From an uncultured Gemmatimonadaceae bacterium (GTDB lineage: Bacteria > Gemmatimonadota > Gemmatimonadetes > Gemmatimonadales > Gemmatimonadaceae): a stretch of DNA of 64,000 bases. The notes below the pieces were generated by a model. The model was not told the DNA's origin. It ran no database searches and saw only the letters and a list, made by a program, of their open reading frames with translations. How positions within the stretch are numbered: position 1 is the stretch's first letter; the number at the start of each line of letters is the position of its first letter. Positions 1,024 to 10,507 of the stretch are shown here, one piece after another. The position numbers and the translations under genes are program-made. The stretch lies in contig CAWGJO010000021.1 in assembly GCA_963822945.1 (NCBI GenBank), forward strand, positions 288,001-352,000, given 5' to 3'.

Positions 1024-1716
1024 ATGCGCCATTCGTGGTTCCTACCGCTCGCCATCGTGCTGCTCGGCACGTCCGTGGCCTCGGCGGACGTCATCCCCAG
1101 TGGCCGGAAGAGCGTGCGCCTGTCCATTCGCGTGGATGCTCCTGGGGTTCCAGCCGGCAAAGTGCTGGTCCTCGCCCATACTTTTCGAGGCGCCGATCGC
1201 ATCGTCCCGGGCCAAGTTGCCAAAGTCGACTGGCATCCGATGGGCGGCGCGATGCAACTCGTCGCGGTCGACTCCGGCGCGGCCGACAAGCTCGCAGCGC
1301 TACAGAAGGACATGAATCGCGAGGCCGCCAACGCCATCACCGATGCAGGCGAAAAGTGCGGCAAGCCCTTCCAGGGCGTCCGCACGGTGCCGGACACCAT
1401 GACGGCGGACGAGATCCGTTGGGTCTACCGCGTGAGCTTCTCGCCACAGGGCTGCGCCGCGGACCTGGTGCGCACCGAGTACCTGGCCGAGGACGGCACC
1501 CTGGTGGAGGCGGAGGGGGGCGACGTCCCCGAGACACCGCCCAGCGTTTCGGCCGAGCCCAGCGCTCCCACACCAGCGCCTGCGCCGTCGCAGGCCGCAC
1601 CGCCGCCCGCCAAGAGCGGCTGCGGCGCGTGCACCGCCACGCGCGCGCCGCTTCCCCTCGGCGCTCCCCTGGCGTTGTTCTGCGCGGCTCTGGCCTGGGC
1701 GCTGCGTCGCCGCTGA
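1024..1716 (+). CDS. Secreted hypothetical protein with MYXO-CTERM-like C-terminal anchor
   Basis: Signal peptide MRHSWFLPLAIVLLGTSVASA; Pro/Ala linker; tail KSGCGAC...LALFCAALAWALRRR. Confidence 0.7.
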   Translation: MRHSWFLPLAIVLLGTSVASADVIPSGRKSVRLSIRVDAPGVPAGKVLVLAHTFRGADRIVPGQVAKVDWHPMGGAMQLVAVDSGAADKLAALQKDMNREAANAITDAGEKCGKPFQGVRTVPDTMTADEIRWVYRVSFSPQGCAADLVRTEYLAEDGTLVEAEGGDVPETPPSVSAEPSAPTPAPAPSQAAPPPAKSGCGACTATRAPLPLGAPLALFCAALAWALRRR

Positions 1717-3673: not shown

Positions 3674-3745
3674 TTACCGCGCGCGCACGAAACCGTTCCC
3701 GCCGAAGCAGGTCGTGGTCGTCGTGGTCGCGGTGGCGCGTTGCAT
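3674..3745 (-). CDS. Thr-rich leader peptide (23 aa) of the thrS attenuator
   Basis: Manual translation MQRATATTTTTTCFGGNGFVRAR*; 7 Thr codons among codons 5-12; directly upstream of the terminator and thrS. Confidence 0.85.
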   Translation of the reverse strand: MQRATATTTTTTCFGGNGFVRAR

Positions 3746-3753
3746 TGCGTCGA

Positions 3754-3784
3754 ATTCTTTGCGACATCTGCCCGCGTCTGTCAA
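3754..3784 (-). promoter_or_regulatory. Possible sigma70-type promoter for the thrS leader (near-leaderless transcript)
   Basis: TTGACA (3784-3779) then AAGAAT (3759-3754) after a 19-nt spacer; ATG 8 nt downstream, no SD. Confidence 0.4.
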
Positions 3785-3870
3785 GCCGAACCCCGCGATT
3801 TGCCCCGGGATCGTCCCCAAACTTGCGCGGGTGGCCCCCCCTCGGTACACCCGGGCGGTTGCGGAAACCG

Positions 3871-6512
3871 ATGCAGCTCAAGGCCTTCGTCAAGCAGCGC
3901 GCGCCGCTGCTCGCCGTTGCCGCCGGCCTGGGGTTCGGGGTGCGCTGCGCCGCGGAGCGTCCACCGGCGCGATCCCTCGAAGGGCTGGCGACCATGCTCG
4001 GCCATGCTTCGGGTACCGTGGTGGACCCGCGGGACATTCGCTGGGAGCCGAGCCCGGGCTTCCTCTCGGAGACCTTCTTCGGCCGGAAGATATTGTTTCT
4101 TGGTGCCCAGGCCAAGGGCAAGCCGCGGGACGTGTACCGCGCCGCCGTGCGCGTCACGCTGGACGGCAAGCCGATTGGTGTCCGTCAGATCCGAAACCTC
4201 ACGGACACGCCCTTGGGCGACGACGCCGGCCTCGAGGTTCGCGACAACGTCGCGGCCTTCGCCACCGTCGCCTTCGGCAGCATCCAGGGCGTGACACTTC
4301 TCGAGCTTTCGGGCGTCAGGCCCGAGGACCGACCCCGGAGCTCGTTCCAGCGGGCGCTGCAGGCGGTCACGTCGTTCCAGGAGACGGGCAGCTCGGATGG
4401 TGTGGGCCGCACCGACGTAGTGCTGGAGCTACCCGCGAAGCAGGCCAAGCTGGTGCTCGATCCGCCGCTCTTGCGCGTGGAGATCGGAGAGCAGGGGCGC
4501 AGCCTGGTGCTCGACACGCGCACACGCGAAGCTCACCGCCGCCGAGGGCGGCCAGGCCTACGCGGCGCGCGCCGAGGTGCACCGCCAACACGCAAAAGCC
4601 GTTGGTGTTGTGGGGCGTCGACACGGTGCGCGCGGAGGTCGGCCCCGGACCCATCGCCTGGCTGGAGGACAAGGTGTTTGGCGCCAAGGACACCGTCCGG
4701 CGCACGACATTCAAGCTGTTCTCGAACAGCGGGGACAAGAACCAACTGAAGGGTGACACGGGCGCGGACACCGTCGCGCGAGTGCTCGACGCCTCGGAGT
4801 TGAAGGACGGCGACAACTGGCCGCCGCCGCCGATTCCGTCACTGTGGAAAGAGCTGAAGCCCGGCGAAGGCGAGTGGCAACCGGTACAGCTGCCGTTCTT
4901 GCGCCCGTTGCCGGGAACGGATTCCAAGGCCGGCAAAGCACCAGCCTACTTCTACAAGACGTTCATTCGGCCGGACTCGGAACGCCCCTACTCCGAGGTG
5001 ATGCTGATCGCGATGGACATGCGGCAGCTGGAGCTGGGCATGCAGGCGGGCTTCGAGGACCCCAAGCCGCTGGCGGGCCCCCCCGGCGACGGGCGGCTGC
5101 CGCGGGACAAGGACGTGCAGGACCGCATCGTCGCGACGTTCAACGGCGCCTTCAAGACCACCCACGGCAAGTACGGCATGATGGTGAACAAGCGCGTGCT
5201 GTTGCCTCCCGTACCGGGCGCCGCGACGGTGACCGTGACCGACAGCGAGGATGTCGGCCTGGGCAGCTGGCCGCAATCCGAGGACATCCCGGACAACATC
5301 GTCTCTTTCCGCCAAAACCTCGACCCGCTGGTGGAGGACGGCGTGGCCAATCCGACAGGCCGATACATCTGGGGCTGGCAGCTCTCGGGTACCAGCGTGA
5401 TGACCCAGCGCACCGCGCTGTGCGTCACGCCCGGCCGGCCATCTCTACTACGCCTTCGGCTCGGAAATCGACGGGCCCACGCTGGGCAAGGCACTGCGCC
5501 AGGCGGGGTGCTCCTACGGCATGCACCTCGACATGAATCCCGGCCACTGCGGCTTCGTGTTCACCGACATCGTCGACATGCGCGCCAAAGAGTTCAATCT
5601 CAAGAAGGCGCACGAGGACATGAAGCTGGACCCGGGAAGTTCGTGCGCTGGAGCGCCAAGGACTTCTTCTACGTCATGGTTCGCAACCCCGTGCCCAAAG
5701 ACCCGAGCCGCGTGCAGTGGAAGCCCGACGGCGGCACCCAGCCGGCGCCTTCCTGGCTGCCGGGTGTCTTTTCCGCACGGCTGCGCATGGGCAATCTCGA
5801 CGTGGACTTGGAAAGCTTCGAGCCGGGCCGCGTGGAGTGGCGCGTGCGGGCCGGCAGCAAAGAGCCGAGCATGGAAGGCGGCGTGAAGAAGAAGCTCGAG
5901 CTCAGCGGCGACGAGCAGCACAAGGTCATCGCGGCCATCAACCTGGGCCACACCACCGAGGTGACTCGCTACGGGCTGGCTTTCGACGGCAAGCCGGCGC
6001 TGGATCTGCGCAGCGCCTACGCCACCGTGGTGGTGGCTCCCCATCGCGCGCCCAAGCTGTTGCCGCCCGGCTCGCAGCCGGTGCTCAAGATCGACGAGGA
6101 AGCCGTTCAGCTGCCCCTCCTGGCCGAGGACGGCAAGCTCACGGAATACGCCTTGACCCACGGGCCCATGCGCCTGCGCGGCGCCCTGTGCGTGGCGTCG
6201 GGACGCGTGCTGGTCGCCCGCGCACGGCATGACTCCAGCGATTCCCTCGCCGCAGCGCTGCTCCGCACCGGCTGCAAGCGCGTCGTCGAGCTCGACCGCG
6301 GCTCGCAGCACCCCGCGTTCTTGCATCGCGCGGGAACCAACACGCCCCCGCTGGCCGGTTACGAGACGACGGTGCTGTACGCCTTGGGCCACGGCATGGT
6401 TCCCCACGCGTTCCGCTGGAAGGCCGAGGGCGCCGTGCCCAGCACCAAGCCGACCGGCTACGACGTCCCCCACCCGAAGCCGAAGAAGCGAGAGGTCGCG
6501 AAAGCGAACTGA
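3871..6512 (+). CDS. Large exported protein with two phosphodiester glycosidase (NAGPA/DUF2233)-like repeats; frameshifts near 4530, 5430, 5630
   Basis: N-terminal hydrophobic segment; repeat 1 ATFNGAF...QRTALCV...GMHLDMNPG; repeat 2 AAINLG...LRGALCV...VVELDRGS; pieces in ORFs 3043, 3714 and 5521. Confidence 0.55.
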
Positions 6513-6581
6513 TCATTTTTGGCTCTCCTCACACCTTAGTGGGTGCGCTTTTCGAACGCGGCGTCGACGGTGGCGCTGAAA

Positions 6582-7743
6582 TCATCCTGGAACGAGCAAC
6601 GCGAACGCAAGGCGGAGCAGCTCTTCCATGGACAAGGAGGTCTCGTCGCGCGCCACGTTGGCCACGACCTGCTTGCTCTCGGCCTTCTTGAAGCCCGGGC
6701 CAGGAGCGCGGCGAGGAGTTTTTCCCGCTTCTGCTCCACGGGATCCAGCTCGGCTGGCCCCGACTTTCGCTGGCGCAAGTCGATCGCTCGCTCCACGGGC
6801 TCCCGGCCGAAAACCTGTTTTGCGTGATGTAAGTTGTGCTCTCTGACAGAGCAGCCGGCTCTCGTCCGCCTTGCCGCTGCCACCGAGAGCTCGCGCGCTC
6901 GACATGGTCGTACTGAAGGAACGCCTTGGACGTGCAGCGCACTCCGTCCTCCGAAACGAAGGCGCACTGCGCGTCGTCCCGCTCGTACACCTCGCGCTTG
7001 TCTTTTCGCGACGGGCTGCCGTCTTTGGTCCCCCGAGAGCACCGTGTCCGGTCCGTCTTGCCCCACTGCTTGTTCTCGAGCTCGCGGATGAGCGCATCCA
7101 GGGCGCGCTCAATCACGATCTCGAGCTCCCGGCTCACGTGGCTCATCAGATTGCGCGCGTGCTCGAGCTTGTCCCGGAGGCGCGCGCTTGCCGTGAACTG
7201 CACACCGAAGCGCTCCTCGGAAAGCGGCTCGACCTGCGGCCGCGGCCCAGCGGGCGCGCCGTCCAAGCCCAGGTGGCCCTGCTCGCCTTTCGGCGACAGC
7301 GGCTGCACGCAGTCTGGGACGTCCGGCTTCGGGAACCAGCGAGCCAGGATCTCGCGAATTGCCGCCTTCGTCTTTCCCGCGGCTTCCTCCAGGAGTTTCT
7401 CATGGTTTTCCGCCGTCAGGTGAGGCGCGAGGAGCGACAGTCCCGACAGATGCAGCCTGCCGTCGGCCAGCATCTCCAGCACCAGTGGGTACCGGTGCGC
7501 CGAGCGCGTGCCGGAGATGGCGCGATGCGCGGTGCCCTCGCTCATGCCGAAGCCCCGCACGCAGAAGTCGAACATCGACGAATAGCCGCGAAGCAGATGC
7601 AGCTCGCGCGCTTCGATCACCGCGAGGTGCGCCAACAAGAGTGCCGTCGCTTTTCGCCGCTCGCCGTTGGCGGACAGTGCGCTGGTCCAGAGATCGCGAT
7701 CAGAAAGCTGCGTCAGCGTGGCAACCGATTCGTGCAATGACAT
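6582..7743 (-). CDS. DUF222-like/HNH endonuclease protein with RuvA-C-like tail; frameshifts near 6890, 6840, 6700
   Basis: LAHLAVIEARELHLLRGYSSMFDFC...GRLHLSGLSLL; HNH region VYERDDAQCAFVSEDGVRC...LQYDHV..ALGG...RLLC..HNLHHA; tail GFKKAESKQVV; GGAGG SD. Confidence 0.75.
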
Positions 7744-7784
7744 GAGGTCCTCCCCAGGGTTGTCTCCGGCATATCACGGTGAAA

Positions 7785-8055
7785 TTCGCCCTCGTGAGCG
7801 GCGCGCCAGCGCGCTTTCACGACTGCGAACCCTTCGAAACTCGATTTCGCTTCGGAGCTCCATTCACGTGCGCGTGAGCGCGAACAACGCGCGCCTCCCG
7901 AACGAGCGACGAAATCGAAACGCCGCTCCCGCGACGACCCGTCAAACAAATTCGACAGGGCACGGTCGATTTCGCGCGCCGCTTTCCATGCGCATCAGTC
8001 GACCGGGGCAAGGAAACGATGGTGCGCTCGCACGCCCCACCCCAGGAGCGCGCCA
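7785..8055. ncRNA. Candidate structured RNA in the non-coding part of the IS-like element
   Basis: Stems TCGTGA/TCACGA (7792-7797/7817-7822), TCGATTTCG/CGAAATCGA (7841-7849/7910-7918), CGGTCGA/TCGACCG (7963-7969/7999-8005), TGGTGCGCTC/GAGCGCGCCA (8020-8029/8046-8055). Confidence 0.35.
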
Positions 8056-8115
8056 CGCACCCGGCCATTGCCACGACCTGTTTGCCCACCCACGAAGATG
8101 TGAGGAGAGCCTTTT

Positions 8116-8171
8116 TTTGTTGGTCCGGCGCGACGTCCGTCGGGCCGCGGCGCTTCCGCGGCGAACCAACA
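8116..8171. repeat. REP-like palindromic repeat, copy 1
   Basis: TTTGTTGGTCCGGCGCG ... CGCGGCGAACCAACA imperfect inverted arms. Confidence 0.65.
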
Positions 8172-8247
8172 TCCAAACGCCCCGGCTCGCATTCCAAGGA
8201 GCACGGCGGCATCGCGCACCCGAGGGTGATGGCGTAGCCTCGCCGTC

Positions 8248-9279
8248 ATGGAACCGTGGTCCCACGAGTACGCGGGCCGCATCGAGGAGATCGTCTTCGA
8301 GAGCGAGCTATTGAAGGATAACCCTCTAGGCGACCCACACGTCCGGCCGCTGTGGGTCTACTTGCCGCCCGGCTACGACGACACGCCCAGCCAGCGCTAT
8401 CCGGTGGTGTATGCGATCCAGGGGCTCACCGGGCAGCTGGACATGTGGAAGAACCGCTATCCGTTGCGCAAGAACTTCCCGGAGCTCGCCGACCAGCTGT
8501 TCGCGGCAAAGAAGGCGCCGCCCTGCATCGTGGTGTACGTGGATTGCTGGACGCGCCTGGGCGGCAGCCAATTCCTCGACTCCCCAGGCACGGGCGAATA
8601 CCACAGCTATCTGTGCAACGAGGTCGTGCCCTTCGTGGACGACAAGTTCCGCACGCTGCCGAGCGCGGCCCACCGCGGCATCATGGGCAAGTCCAGCGGG
8701 GGCTACGGAGCCATGGTCACGCCCATGCTGCGCCCGGATCTGTTCGGCGGGCTCGCGACCCACGCCGGAGACGCGCTGTTCGAGACCTGCTACCAGCCGG
8801 CGTTCCGCGATGCCGTTCGCGCGCTGCGCGATCATTGCGACGGTAGCTTCGAGGCATTCTGGGCACGGCAGCGCACGTCGACGCCACTGCGCGAGCCGTG
8901 GGAGATGCATCTATTGAACGACTACTGCATGGCTGCTTGCTATTCGGCGGAGGAAGACGGCACGGTCCGGCTTCCCTACGACACGGCCACCGGCCGGATA
9001 ATCCCGGAAATATGGGAGCGTTGGCTGGCGTGGGACCCGGTTCGGATGGTGTCCAAGCATGGGCCTGCGTTGCGCGGCCTGCGCGCCATCTACATCGACG
9101 CCGGCCACCGCGATCAGTACTTCCTGGATCTCGGGGCCGAGGCGTTCCGCCGGGAGCTGGATGCCATTGGCGTGGGCGAGGTGTACTTCGAGTTGTTCGA
9201 CGCGACCCACTCCGCCATCGAGTACCGCTACCCGCTAGCCCTCCGCTATCTGGCCGATCGCCTCAGCCCCGCCCCCTGA
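8248..9279 (+). CDS. Alpha/beta hydrolase, enterochelin-esterase-like putative esterase
   Basis: VYLPPGY, nucleophile elbow GKSSGG, IYIDAG..D, C-terminal His. Confidence 0.85.
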   Translation: MEPWSHEYAGRIEEIVFESELLKDNPLGDPHVRPLWVYLPPGYDDTPSQRYPVVYAIQGLTGQLDMWKNRYPLRKNFPELADQLFAAKKAPPCIVVYVDCWTRLGGSQFLDSPGTGEYHSYLCNEVVPFVDDKFRTLPSAAHRGIMGKSSGGYGAMVTPMLRPDLFGGLATHAGDALFETCYQPAFRDAVRALRDHCDGSFEAFWARQRTSTPLREPWEMHLLNDYCMAACYSAEEDGTVRLPYDTATGRIIPEIWERWLAWDPVRMVSKHGPALRGLRAIYIDAGHRDQYFLDLGAEAFRRELDAIGVGEVYFELFDATHSAIEYRYPLALRYLADRLSPAP

Positions 9280-9362
9280 AAGCGTCCGGACGAAGCCCGC
9301 GAGGCGTCCGGACAAACCGCGGATTTCCCCAAAGAACACCGCAAAAGTCCCGGGATTTGCCC

Positions 9363-9378
9363 TGGCACGGGGACTGCT
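9363..9378 (+). promoter_or_regulatory. Probable sigma54 -24/-12 promoter
   Basis: TGGCACGGGGACTGCT (GG-N10-GC), just upstream of the ATG at 9392. Confidence 0.55.
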
Positions 9379-9391
9379 TTGGACACTCCCC

Positions 9392-10507
9392 ATGCGCATC
9401 CAATCCCTGCTCGGTCCCCTCGTCCTCGTGGCCCTCGCTTCCGGCTGCTCCGCGGCCACGGGAGACCCGACCGAGACCGGAGAGGGGACCGGACGCGCCG
9501 CCGAGCGAGTCAGCCAGGTCTCCAGCGCCTATTGCAGCATCCAGGTGAGCGGCCACGGGTCCGTGGACATGGAGCTGGACTACCTGCCGCACGTGATCGC
9601 TTGCGAGAACAACGGAGCCGGACTCGAAGCGTTGAAGGCGCAAGCAATCGCTGCGCGCAGCGTGGCCTACTACAACATGGCGACCCAAGGCTCGATCTGC
9701 GATGGCCAAGGGTGCCAGGTCTACAGCTGCAGCAACAAGCCGGGCCCCCTGCACTACCAGGCCGTGGCCGAGACCGCCCAGCAGTACTTGTCCTATTCGA
9801 ACATGCTCACCTACGGCTTCTACGTGGCCGGGGACTCCGGCGTGTCGGGTCCGGCCTGCGTGGATAGCGGCGGCTCCACCACGAAGTGGGTGACTTTCAA
9901 CGACGGAAAGTCCGGCACCAGCGTGACCCAGACGAAGCTCGGCTACGTCGGTCCGCCCGGCTTCGGCCAGAACCGCGGGTGCATGAGCCAGTACGGAGCG
10001 CGCTGCCTGGAGGACAACGGCCACAACTACGTGGGCATCCTGCGCTTTTACTACGGCAACGACATCAACGTGATCACCGCTCCCGGCAACTGCGACGTTC
10101 CGACCGTGGATCCCGGCACGCCCACGCCGACGCCGGACCCGACGCCCGAGCCCACTCCGGAACCCACGCCGGATCCGGGCGGCACGCCTCCGGCGCCGAG
10201 CGCCGGCTCCTGTCAGGGATTGTGCGGCAGCCCCAACGCGGCGCCCGGCTCGAGCCCTAGCTGCTACTGCGACGACCAGTGCACCGGCTACGGCGACTGC
10301 TGCCAGGATTTCACCGCGGCCTGCGGCTCGACACCGCCCGCACCGCCGCCGGAACCGACCCCCGCGCCCTCGCCCAGTGGCGGAAGCTGCATGGGTCAGT
10401 GCTGGAGCTCGACCCCCGCGGCCGGCTCGAGCCCCGCTTGCTACTGTGACGCGTCTTGCATCGGTTTCGGCGACTGCTGCGCCGACTTCGTGCCCGCCTG
10501 CCTGTGA
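9392..10507 (+). CDS. SpoIID/LytB-domain lipoprotein with Pro-Thr linker and two somatomedin-B-like domains
   Basis: Lipobox LASGC; YLPHVIACE..LEALKAQAIAARS, CQVY, GCMSQYGA, ILRFYY; SCQGLCG...CYCDDQCTGYGDCCQDF and SCMGQC...CYCDASCIGFGDCCADF. Confidence 0.8.
   Translation: MRIQSLLGPLVLVALASGCSAATGDPTETGEGTGRAAERVSQVSSAYCSIQVSGHGSVDMELDYLPHVIACENNGAGLEALKAQAIAARSVAYYNMATQGSICDGQGCQVYSCSNKPGPLHYQAVAETAQQYLSYSNMLTYGFYVAGDSGVSGPACVDSGGSTTKWVTFNDGKSGTSVTQTKLGYVGPPGFGQNRGCMSQYGARCLEDNGHNYVGILRFYYGNDINVITAPGNCDVPTVDPGTPTPTPDPTPEPTPEPTPDPGGTPPAPSAGSCQGLCGSPNAAPGSSPSCYCDDQCTGYGDCCQDFTAACGSTPPAPPPEPTPAPSPSGGSCMGQCWSSTPAAGSSPACYCDASCIGFGDCCADFVPACL

Follow-up and report, generated by a model that had tools for sequence, protein, structure and literature searches.

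An HNH nuclease pseudogene between ISL3-type terminal inverted repeats in a Gemmatimonadaceae contig and its homologues within IS630-type ends

MIC231 of Bacillus cereus, which is derived from IS231, is an example of a mobile insertion cassette (MIC). In a passage of PMC3129680, this ISfinder category is described as insertion sequence (IS) ends around a gene other than a transposase gene, with no transposase and with presumed mobilisation in trans. A comparable element was found in the window, a stretch of 64,000 nt from an uncultured Gemmatimonadaceae bacterium (G000:C21:288001-352000), where an HNH nuclease pseudogene lies between terminal inverted repeats (TIRs) at 6521-8111. Positions are those of the window unless contig C21 or another locus is stated. 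We consider that the element is probably a non-autonomous derivative of an ISL3 element, that is, a mobile insertion cassette that was moved in trans and has now decayed. It resembles the described cassettes in its IS-type TIRs, its non-transposase gene and the absence of a transposase. It also moved as a unit, since an empty site exists and other flanks were found at a second copy in the host genome (copy 2), at a metagenome locus (L042) and in a soil metagenome (X4). MIC231 has IS4/IS231 ends, whereas the window element has ISL3 ends, a nuclease cargo whose kin also occur in IS630 shells, and a target duplication of at most 5 bp.

Described ISL3 elements (ISArsp7, IS1557-like elements and two annotated plasmid copies, L084 and L083) are similar to the window element in their ends of ~28 bp, their A/T-rich sites, their length of ~1.4-1.6 kb and a gene that runs from the end resembling the left inverted repeat (IRL). 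The window element differs from them in that it lacks DDE_Tnp_ISL3, shares only ~30 bp and has no 8-bp duplication. With regard to the cargo, REP13E12/HNH/DUF222 is listed among repetitive elements near insertion sequences in a passage of PMC10589994. The mycobacterial REP13E12 genes are dispersed and multi-copy, and they also encode a helical N-terminal domain followed by HNH. The window protein differs in that it does not reach Pfam DUF222 and carries an additional RuvA domain III tail. The TnpB/IscB proteins (OMEGA; IS200/IS605 and IS607) are likewise transposon-borne nucleases that are not the transposase, and the HNH domain of the window protein is nearest to that of IscB/Cas9 by NCBIfam and by fold. 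In contrast, the window protein has no RuvC domain, Rfam gave no guide RNA, and the host elements are of the DDE type and not of the HUH or serine type. A search of an open-access literature library gave no account of HNH genes enclosed by IS ends.

Ends, empty site and copies of the window element

The left TIR (6521-6548, + strand, GGCTCTCCTCACACCTTAGTGGGTGCGC) and the right TIR (8084-8111, - strand, inward GGCTCTCCTCACATCTTCGTGGGTGGGC) formed a 28-nt inverted repeat with 25/28 complementary positions, and both arms started with GGCTCT. The left TIR is located on the 3' side of the HNH gene, and copy 2 has the identical TIR. The right TIR is located on the 5' side, and 26 nt of it are the same as the end of locus L043, which is described below. 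The region 6000-8700 was shuffled 100 times with dinucleotides preserved, and arms at least 200 nt apart were compared. None of the 100 shuffles reached 25 matches, and the best shuffled 28-nt inverted repeat had 22. The element measures 1591 bp. A T5 run (6516-6520) abuts the left end and a T7 run (8112-8118) abuts the right end, so that T5 and the first five T of the T7 run were the candidate target-site duplication. The repeats, their GGCTCT starts and the abutting T runs had been described in an initial annotation of the window, and all of them were confirmed, with the duplication limited by the empty site to at most 5 bp.

The ends were compared with those of transposase-bearing elements. 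A scan of metagenome contigs with a TIR 22-mer gave two contigs, L042 and L043. L042 was a further copy of the unit of TIR and HNH leader, and outside the TIR it had a different, A-rich flank. In L043, the same 26 nt (26/26 of the window right TIR) were located ~140 nt outside the start of an open reading frame (ORF) with Zn_ribbon_ISL3 (5e-11) and HTH_Tnp_ISL3 (7e-12) domains, after which DDE_Tnp_ISL3 began in the next frame. Full-length relatives of this ORF had 411-414 aa, and one of them (P0121) scored 322 bits on the NCBIfam model transpos_ISL3 against a cut-off of 180. In this reading, the ends of the ISL3 subgroup would be GGCTCTCCTCACA-like. An annotated ISL3 element on an Arthrobacter plasmid (L084) had ends GGCTCTCCTGACGTAAGTGTGGGT with a perfect 8-bp duplication TAAAGTAG, and one on a Rhodococcus plasmid (L083) had ends GGCTCTTCTGCCATGAATGTGGATG with a perfect 8-bp duplication ATATTTTT. 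For ISArsp7, also of the ISL3 family, Table 3 of PMC6305408 gives ends GGCTCTTCGCGG... and an 8-bp direct repeat. The annotated ISL3 ends had the form GGCTCT(C/T)CT...GTGG(G/A)T, which the window TIR fitted, and the left TIR was identical to the Arthrobacter IRL at 18/28 positions.

The window element therefore has TIRs of the ISL3 kind, which are ~20-40 bp long and start with GGCTCT. It has no DDE_Tnp_ISL3 transposase of its own. Its target is A/T-rich as in ISL3 elements. In place of an 8-bp duplication there are no more than 5 T, and the length is blurred by the homopolymer. The sequence shared with real ISL3 elements was ~30 bp per end, with nothing beyond this in L043. When transposase remnants were sought by tblastx within the element and in copies 2 and 3, only noise was obtained, as is usual in high-GC DNA. 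The C-terminal tails of ISL3 transposases (...HP, ...LP) gave no convincing match to the spacer of 33 bp next to the left TIR. Immediately beyond the ISL3 end of L043, positions 1120-1486 (-) held the C-terminal part of another transposase-like ORF with the motif TNVIERINEEFRRR, which we take to be IS256-like. In that case, the surroundings of L043 would be an IS-rich patch.

Contigs of four public metagenome runs, X1-X4 (marsh, salt marsh, marine sediment and soil, X4 being the soil run), were aligned to 5000-9600 at 85% likeness. The empty-site allele, which had been suggested earlier as a check, was present. Position 6515 was joined to 8112 in one contig each of X2 and X3 (2/4 runs), with 70 letters on the shorter side and a depth of 2.1 in X2, and 46 letters and a depth of 3.1 in X3. 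The sequence was GATCA, seven T, GTTGG. The joint omitted 1596 bp, which corresponded to the 1591-bp element and one TTTTT, and 4-5 letters fitted either side. Since the joint equals the element plus 5 bp, the duplication cannot exceed 5 bp. The empty site contains TTTTGTTGGTC, which therefore belongs to the target DNA. The insertion point is an A/T-rich intergenic T-run, 4 bases past the stop codon of the upstream gene. Summed contig depth over 6540-8079 was mostly ~10-64 in all four runs (bins 3.2-64.3), and outside 6386-8233 it was 0-7 in all four runs, except for one X1 bin at 10.3. In the soil run, 5/18 flank bins were covered, each at a depth of 2.6 or less, yet a different flank was found at 6521. 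The element is a discrete, polymorphic insertion.

The 8-base flanks of the ends of HNH elements were all A/T-rich in this genome of 68% GC (TCATTTTT, TTTTTTTG, AGATTTTG, ATTTATTT, CAAAAAAT and CAAAATGA). The 8-base flank of the L043 ISL3 end, ATTTCGAT, was A/T-rich as well, and the duplications of the annotated ISL3 elements were similar. The sequence GACCA(A/G)CAAAA, read toward the TIR, adjoined three independent TIR ends, those of the window, copy 2 and a loose end in X4, and in the window it was part of the empty site. This motif hints that there may be a target preference beyond A/T-richness.

Other copies were searched for in the host assembly G000 (3.97 Mb, 45 contigs, 88% complete, ~68% GC). 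The 17-mer GGCTCTCCTCACAYCTT occurred exactly four times in the genome, always on contig C21, namely in the two window arms, at C21:270976 (-) and at C21:195326 (+). With 3 mismatches, there were 3 further matches, compared with 5 for the reversed-pattern control. Copy 2 (C21:270432-270977) had 93% identity to the 550 bp at the 3' side of the element, TIR included, and it was broken off 12 bp from the end of a neighbouring gene. A solo end (C21:195323-195383, 61 bp) was 82% identical to the first 61 bp of the element. The two extra TIRs, at 195326 (+) and 270976 (-), faced each other over 75 kb; they could be the borders of a former larger unit or the trace of a rearrangement. In P0002, a protein from another assembly, the reading frame ran on into TIR codons. 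Because of copy 2, L042, the read-through tail of P0002 and the aligned metagenome contigs, the composite of TIR and HNH gene is recurrent. No match to PF01610, the ISL3 transposase domain, was obtained in the host assembly, where positive controls were detected, and the best relative of the N-terminal protein of L043 there had an E value of 0.11.

These copies bear on the idea that the HNH gene landed in an ISL3 element or in a miniature inverted-repeat transposable element (MITE) at the window locus only, or that the repeat is a palindrome of chance origin or with a regulatory function. The host genome has a single full copy and the gene was absent from 150 genomes of the same family, which would agree with a one-off event. 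The results of the shuffles and the presence of an empty site spoke against it. Junctions of TIR and HNH sequence recurred in copy 2, L042 and P0002, and depth exceeded that of the flanks in 4/4 metagenomes. Because the composite unit recurs elsewhere, a one-off accident was refuted, and we find it scarcely credible. The initial annotation had stated that its view would fail if the TIRs belonged to a common DDE family into which the HNH gene had landed only here. The first half of this was found, since the ends are those of ISL3. The second was not, since copy 2, L042, the X4 flank and the P0002 read-through all combine the HNH sequence with these TIRs.

The HNH gene and the host genome

The sole convincing gene within the element is located on the minus strand (6582-7743), with its start at 7743, and was recognised as an HNH nuclease pseudogene from its frames, metagenome copies, fold and Pfam matches. 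Its orientation is that expected of the ISL3 transposase. The 340-bp leader (7744-8083, - strand), 5' of the start codon, belongs to the mobile unit according to L042 and metagenome depth, which remained high as far as ~8079. Its outer 143 bp were kept in L042 with 78% identity and were continuous with the TIR. No Rfam match at E≤1 was obtained in 6300-8400, which covers the element and leader, and no sigma-70-like promoter was found in the leader.

The window gene was compared with P0004, an intact relative of 386 aa. Residues 1-282 were encoded in a single frame with 93% identity. The frame then changed three times, by 1-base insertions near 6896 and near 6842 and by a 1-base deletion near 6696. 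The stop codon TGA (6582-6584) was located 33 nt inside the left TIR, which left a short untranslated spacer of 33 bp (6549-6581, - strand) between the true stop codon and the TIR. The frameshift near 6842 was common to the window copy, copy 2 and P0002. Metagenome contigs lacked the extra base at 6896 in 4/4 runs, and lacked the other two indels in some runs. The window copy is a pseudogene, and intact copies are present in the environment.

More than 2160 relatives at E≤0.001 were found among 8000 scored candidates from a protein collection, and most of them came from metagenome-assembled genomes (MAGs) of Polyangiaceae and other Myxococcota. Intact relatives such as P0004, P0005 and P0008 had 383-386 aa. 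Pfam gave RuvA_C on the frame-shifted tail of the window protein (E 6e-6) and in 28/34 aligned relatives, which confirmed the RuvA-C-like tail noticed earlier. HNH was matched in 28/34 and HNH_5 in 26/34 relatives (E≤1; best 6e-5). No DDE, HUH or recombinase domain was matched by Pfam on the three ORF pieces of the window, in agreement with the initial annotation. The proposed DUF222-like N-terminus was only weakly borne out. DUF222 (PF02720) was matched in 2/34 relatives with a best E of 4e-4, and no match was obtained for the window ORFs or P0004. A homologue from the genome G521, treated below, reached E 0.003 and 17.3 bits, which is below the cut-off of 24.4. C260, C270, H280, C299 and H302 were invariant, and N303 was nearly invariant. 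The protein belongs to the HNH superfamily, with the beta-beta-alpha-metal core and conserved His, Asn and Cys residues.

An AlphaFold model of P0004 was built from an alignment of 34 sequences (mean predicted local distance difference test score, pLDDT, 82) and was compared with ~48,000 PDB representatives. Residues 334-386 resembled RuvA domain III (Z 8.2, root-mean-square deviation 1.2 Å over 48 residues), and residues 238-316 resembled HNH nucleases (McrA, Z 7.4; IscB HNH, Z 7.1). Residues 28-138 were similar to the DNA-binding domains of ParB/KorB/Spo0J (Z 6.4-7.0) and residues 179-230 to small MazE/TraM-like units (Z 5.4-6.2), and both ranges may reflect a common helical arrangement only. 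The model suggested that the intact protein has a ParB/KorB-like helical DNA-binding domain, a small unit like a ribbon-helix-helix, an HNH domain and a RuvA domain III-like tail. Foldseek gave no match at E≤0.001 for the whole model. Its top row was a TasH complex (E 0.097, TM 0.16-0.20), which probably reflected the HNH domain alone. The nearest NCBIfam model was guided_IscB, with 21-29 bits against a cut-off of 175 and with the HNH part only. The PADLOC scan for defence systems gave no match.

Nine distant HNH loci were examined with 11-mer seeds and a repeat search, and no clear TIRs were seen. At one of them (L029), a 37-nt inverted repeat of 73% flanked the gene. Three loci in one Krumholzibacteriales MAG (L031, L033 and L037) encoded a distant homologue of 347 aa without the RuvA tail. 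They had in common a sharp 5' boundary, CTTGACAGCTCTGAAAC..., which followed T-rich flanks ~300 bp before the start codon. No inverted partner of this boundary was found in the three loci, of which two reach contig ends.

The element was also sought in related genomes. Element DNA was absent from 150 other genomes of the same family, which gave short chance matches only, and the HNH protein was absent from the same genomes at E≤1e-10. A TIR scan of 401 class-level genomes gave the host genome only, together with one match with 2 mismatches. In three genomes of the same genus, the flanks of the element were not matched as DNA and no convincing orthologues of the flanking proteins were found. 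No empty site could be read there because the flanks were not common to these genomes. The closest HNH relatives were labelled Polyangiaceae. Because of these labels, the unmatched flanks in the genus and the absence of the protein from the family, contig C21 may reflect a binning error or horizontal acquisition.

In the upstream region, a 932-aa ORF (3714-6512, + strand) had long Arg/Pro-rich stretches that were apparently out of frame, and a neighbouring frame at 5521-5886 resembled a genuine protein. This pattern suggests compensating frameshifts in ORF 3714-6512, which could come from a pseudogene or from assembly indels.

Homologues within IS630-type ends

Homologues of the HNH protein were frequent in G521, an 8.8-Mb MAG that holds the locus L032. 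There were 47 matches, which corresponded to ~25 genes, and 13 copies that were compared had 88-95% DNA identity. The protein had 40% identity to P0004 over 341 aa (E 2e-67) and lacked the RuvA tail. The TIRs were (C)TACAGCGTCTTTCCATGGCCTGGAAC on the 5' side of the gene and, read inward, (C)TACAGCGGCTTTCAGAGACATGGAAC on the 3' side. This pattern occurred 43 times, compared with 0 for the reversed control. In three full elements of 1749-2081 bp, no ORF other than the HNH gene lay between the TIRs. Five MITEs of 423-783 bp, located at different loci, all consisted of positions 1-512 and 1916-1981 of the full element. One deletion junction was common to the five MITEs, and therefore copies spread without the gene in cis. 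No MITE homologues were found in relatives of G521.

The type of these ends was recognised in G540, a relative of G521. A 1037-bp element there lies between TA-CAGCGGCTCTCAGTGACATGGAAC and TA-CAGCGGTTCTCCATGACTCGGAAC and encodes a transposase with DDE_3 (1e-32) and HTH_Tnp_IS630. The two G521 ends agreed with those of this element at 23/25 and 20/25 positions, and in G521 the HNH gene has the same orientation as the transposase in G540. The sharing was limited to the ends. The G521 homologues thus have TA flanks and TIRs in common with a transposase-bearing IS630 element. IS630 elements have TA within CTAG as their target. The only IS630-type transposase in G521 itself was considered as the autonomous partner and was ruled out by its different ends.

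Between the TIR pairs of G521, no transposase was found except for an IS110 insertion into a MITE. This was locus L085 (G521:C28:20500-23700, positions 485-2729), where a frameshifted IS110-family gene was nested in an IS630-type MITE with a TIR pair spanning 2245 bp. Its domains were DEDD_Tnp_IS110 (5e-8) and Transposase_20 (2e-21). At L088 (G521:C11:272900-276900), the left TIR and the HNH leader were followed by a different open frame of ~1000 aa and not by the HNH gene, which is a possible case of promoter donation or of other cargo. At L066 (1815-2060, - strand), ~200 nt between the HNH stop codon and the right TIR were rich in short GC stems closed by UUCG-like loops, an arrangement reminiscent of a structured RNA, and gave no Rfam match. 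Rfam matches were likewise absent from the three G521 loci that were scanned.

One nuclease family thus stands in the place of the transposase in two unrelated DDE families, ISL3 and IS630. A single chance capture is therefore insufficient as an explanation. The HNH protein might itself be the transposase, in an autonomous element of a new class. The HNH gene was the only ORF between the TIRs both in the window and in the three full G521 elements, and no G521 TIR pair contained a DDE gene, the IS110 insertion aside. However, the TIRs belong to genuine DDE elements with transposases of their own, and one protein family would need to recognise two unrelated TIR types. The A/T-rich targets, which were checked, are an ISL3 signature, and TA-in-CTAG flanks are the signature of an IS630 transposase. 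To our knowledge, strand transfer by HNH nucleases has not been described. We regard an HNH transposase as highly improbable. A new element class driven by the HNH protein had been one option of the initial annotation; this would apply at most as a maintenance role. Its other option, a non-autonomous element mobilised in trans with a nuclease as cargo, was supported by the ISL3-family ends, by the lack of a transposase inside the element and elsewhere in the assembly and by the polymorphic insertion.

Probable mobilisation in trans and possible roles of the nuclease

In the reading as an ISL3-derived cassette, the HNH gene and its 340-bp leader would occupy the place of the DDE transposase between the two 28-bp TIRs. 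An ISL3 transposase from an intact relative would have acted in trans and inserted the unit into the A/T-rich T-run. The mover would be this transposase, and the HNH gene would be a selfish passenger.

Several results weigh against this reading. The left flank ends in TCATTTTT and the right flank begins with TTTTTTTG; these two 8-mers differ, so that no 8-bp duplication is seen. Homopolymer slippage could be the reason, but the mismatch was counted as real. The Logan contigs of the empty site were shallow (2.1 and 3.1) and were aligned at only 85% likeness. No cognate transposase was found in the 88%-complete genome; repeats are often unassembled, so this result is weak either way. The ~30 bp in common with ISL3 elements would fit the acquisition of ISL3 ends as well as descent from an ISL3 element. 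In addition, G521 has 43 TIRs with no transposase between the pairs, yet it has many elements and MITEs, so that some role for the HNH protein is conceivable.

Such a role could be maintenance. A DDE transposase in trans would still move the element, and the HNH protein would act as a maintenance or drive nuclease, comparable to TnpB/IscB but composed of protein only. Once it had cut the emptied donor site or intact rival copies of the IS, repair by recombination would restore the element, and the RuvA tail would recruit RuvB. Homologous HNH genes lie in the slot and in the orientation of the transposase, both in ISL3 ends in the window and in IS630 ends in G521. In the predicted structure, a ParB/KorB-like fold (Z 6.4-7.0) is joined to an HNH domain (Z 7.4) and to RuvA domain III (Z 8.2), which would suit this activity. 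Genomes rich in HNH elements had no detected cognate intact IS. On the other hand, the RuvA tail is absent from the G521 subfamily, and many copies are pseudogenes, including the window copy. The ~30 bp of IS sequence around the cassette is short for homology-directed conversion, and the five MITEs with one deletion junction at different loci indicated that copies multiply even when the gene is missing in cis. Both points speak against simple homing via gene conversion. The evidence for maintenance comes from sequence and a structural model, and we consider such a role unlikely. A broader form of the idea is that a DNA-binding HNH family has specialised as a parasite or partner of DDE insertion sequences. 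It would repeatedly take the transposase slot and promote its own retention or spread: it would cleave empty donor sites or IS copies that are intact, and repair would then proceed via recombination. We regard this broader proposal as unlikely.

As a transposase-less cassette between IS ends, which is a kind of element already known, the window element represents no new kind of transposition and does not involve new transposition chemistry. What is unusual is the cargo. One nuclease family is the sole gene in derivatives of two unrelated DDE IS families, with ~25 copies in one genome, where it has spawned MITEs. In annotations, these elements appear as 'hypothetical protein' or 'McrA', and IS finders overlook them. 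If the nuclease is more than a hitchhiker, the TnpB/IscB idea, in which a nuclease sustains its transposon, would extend to DDE elements of the cut-and-paste type and to recognition by protein alone.

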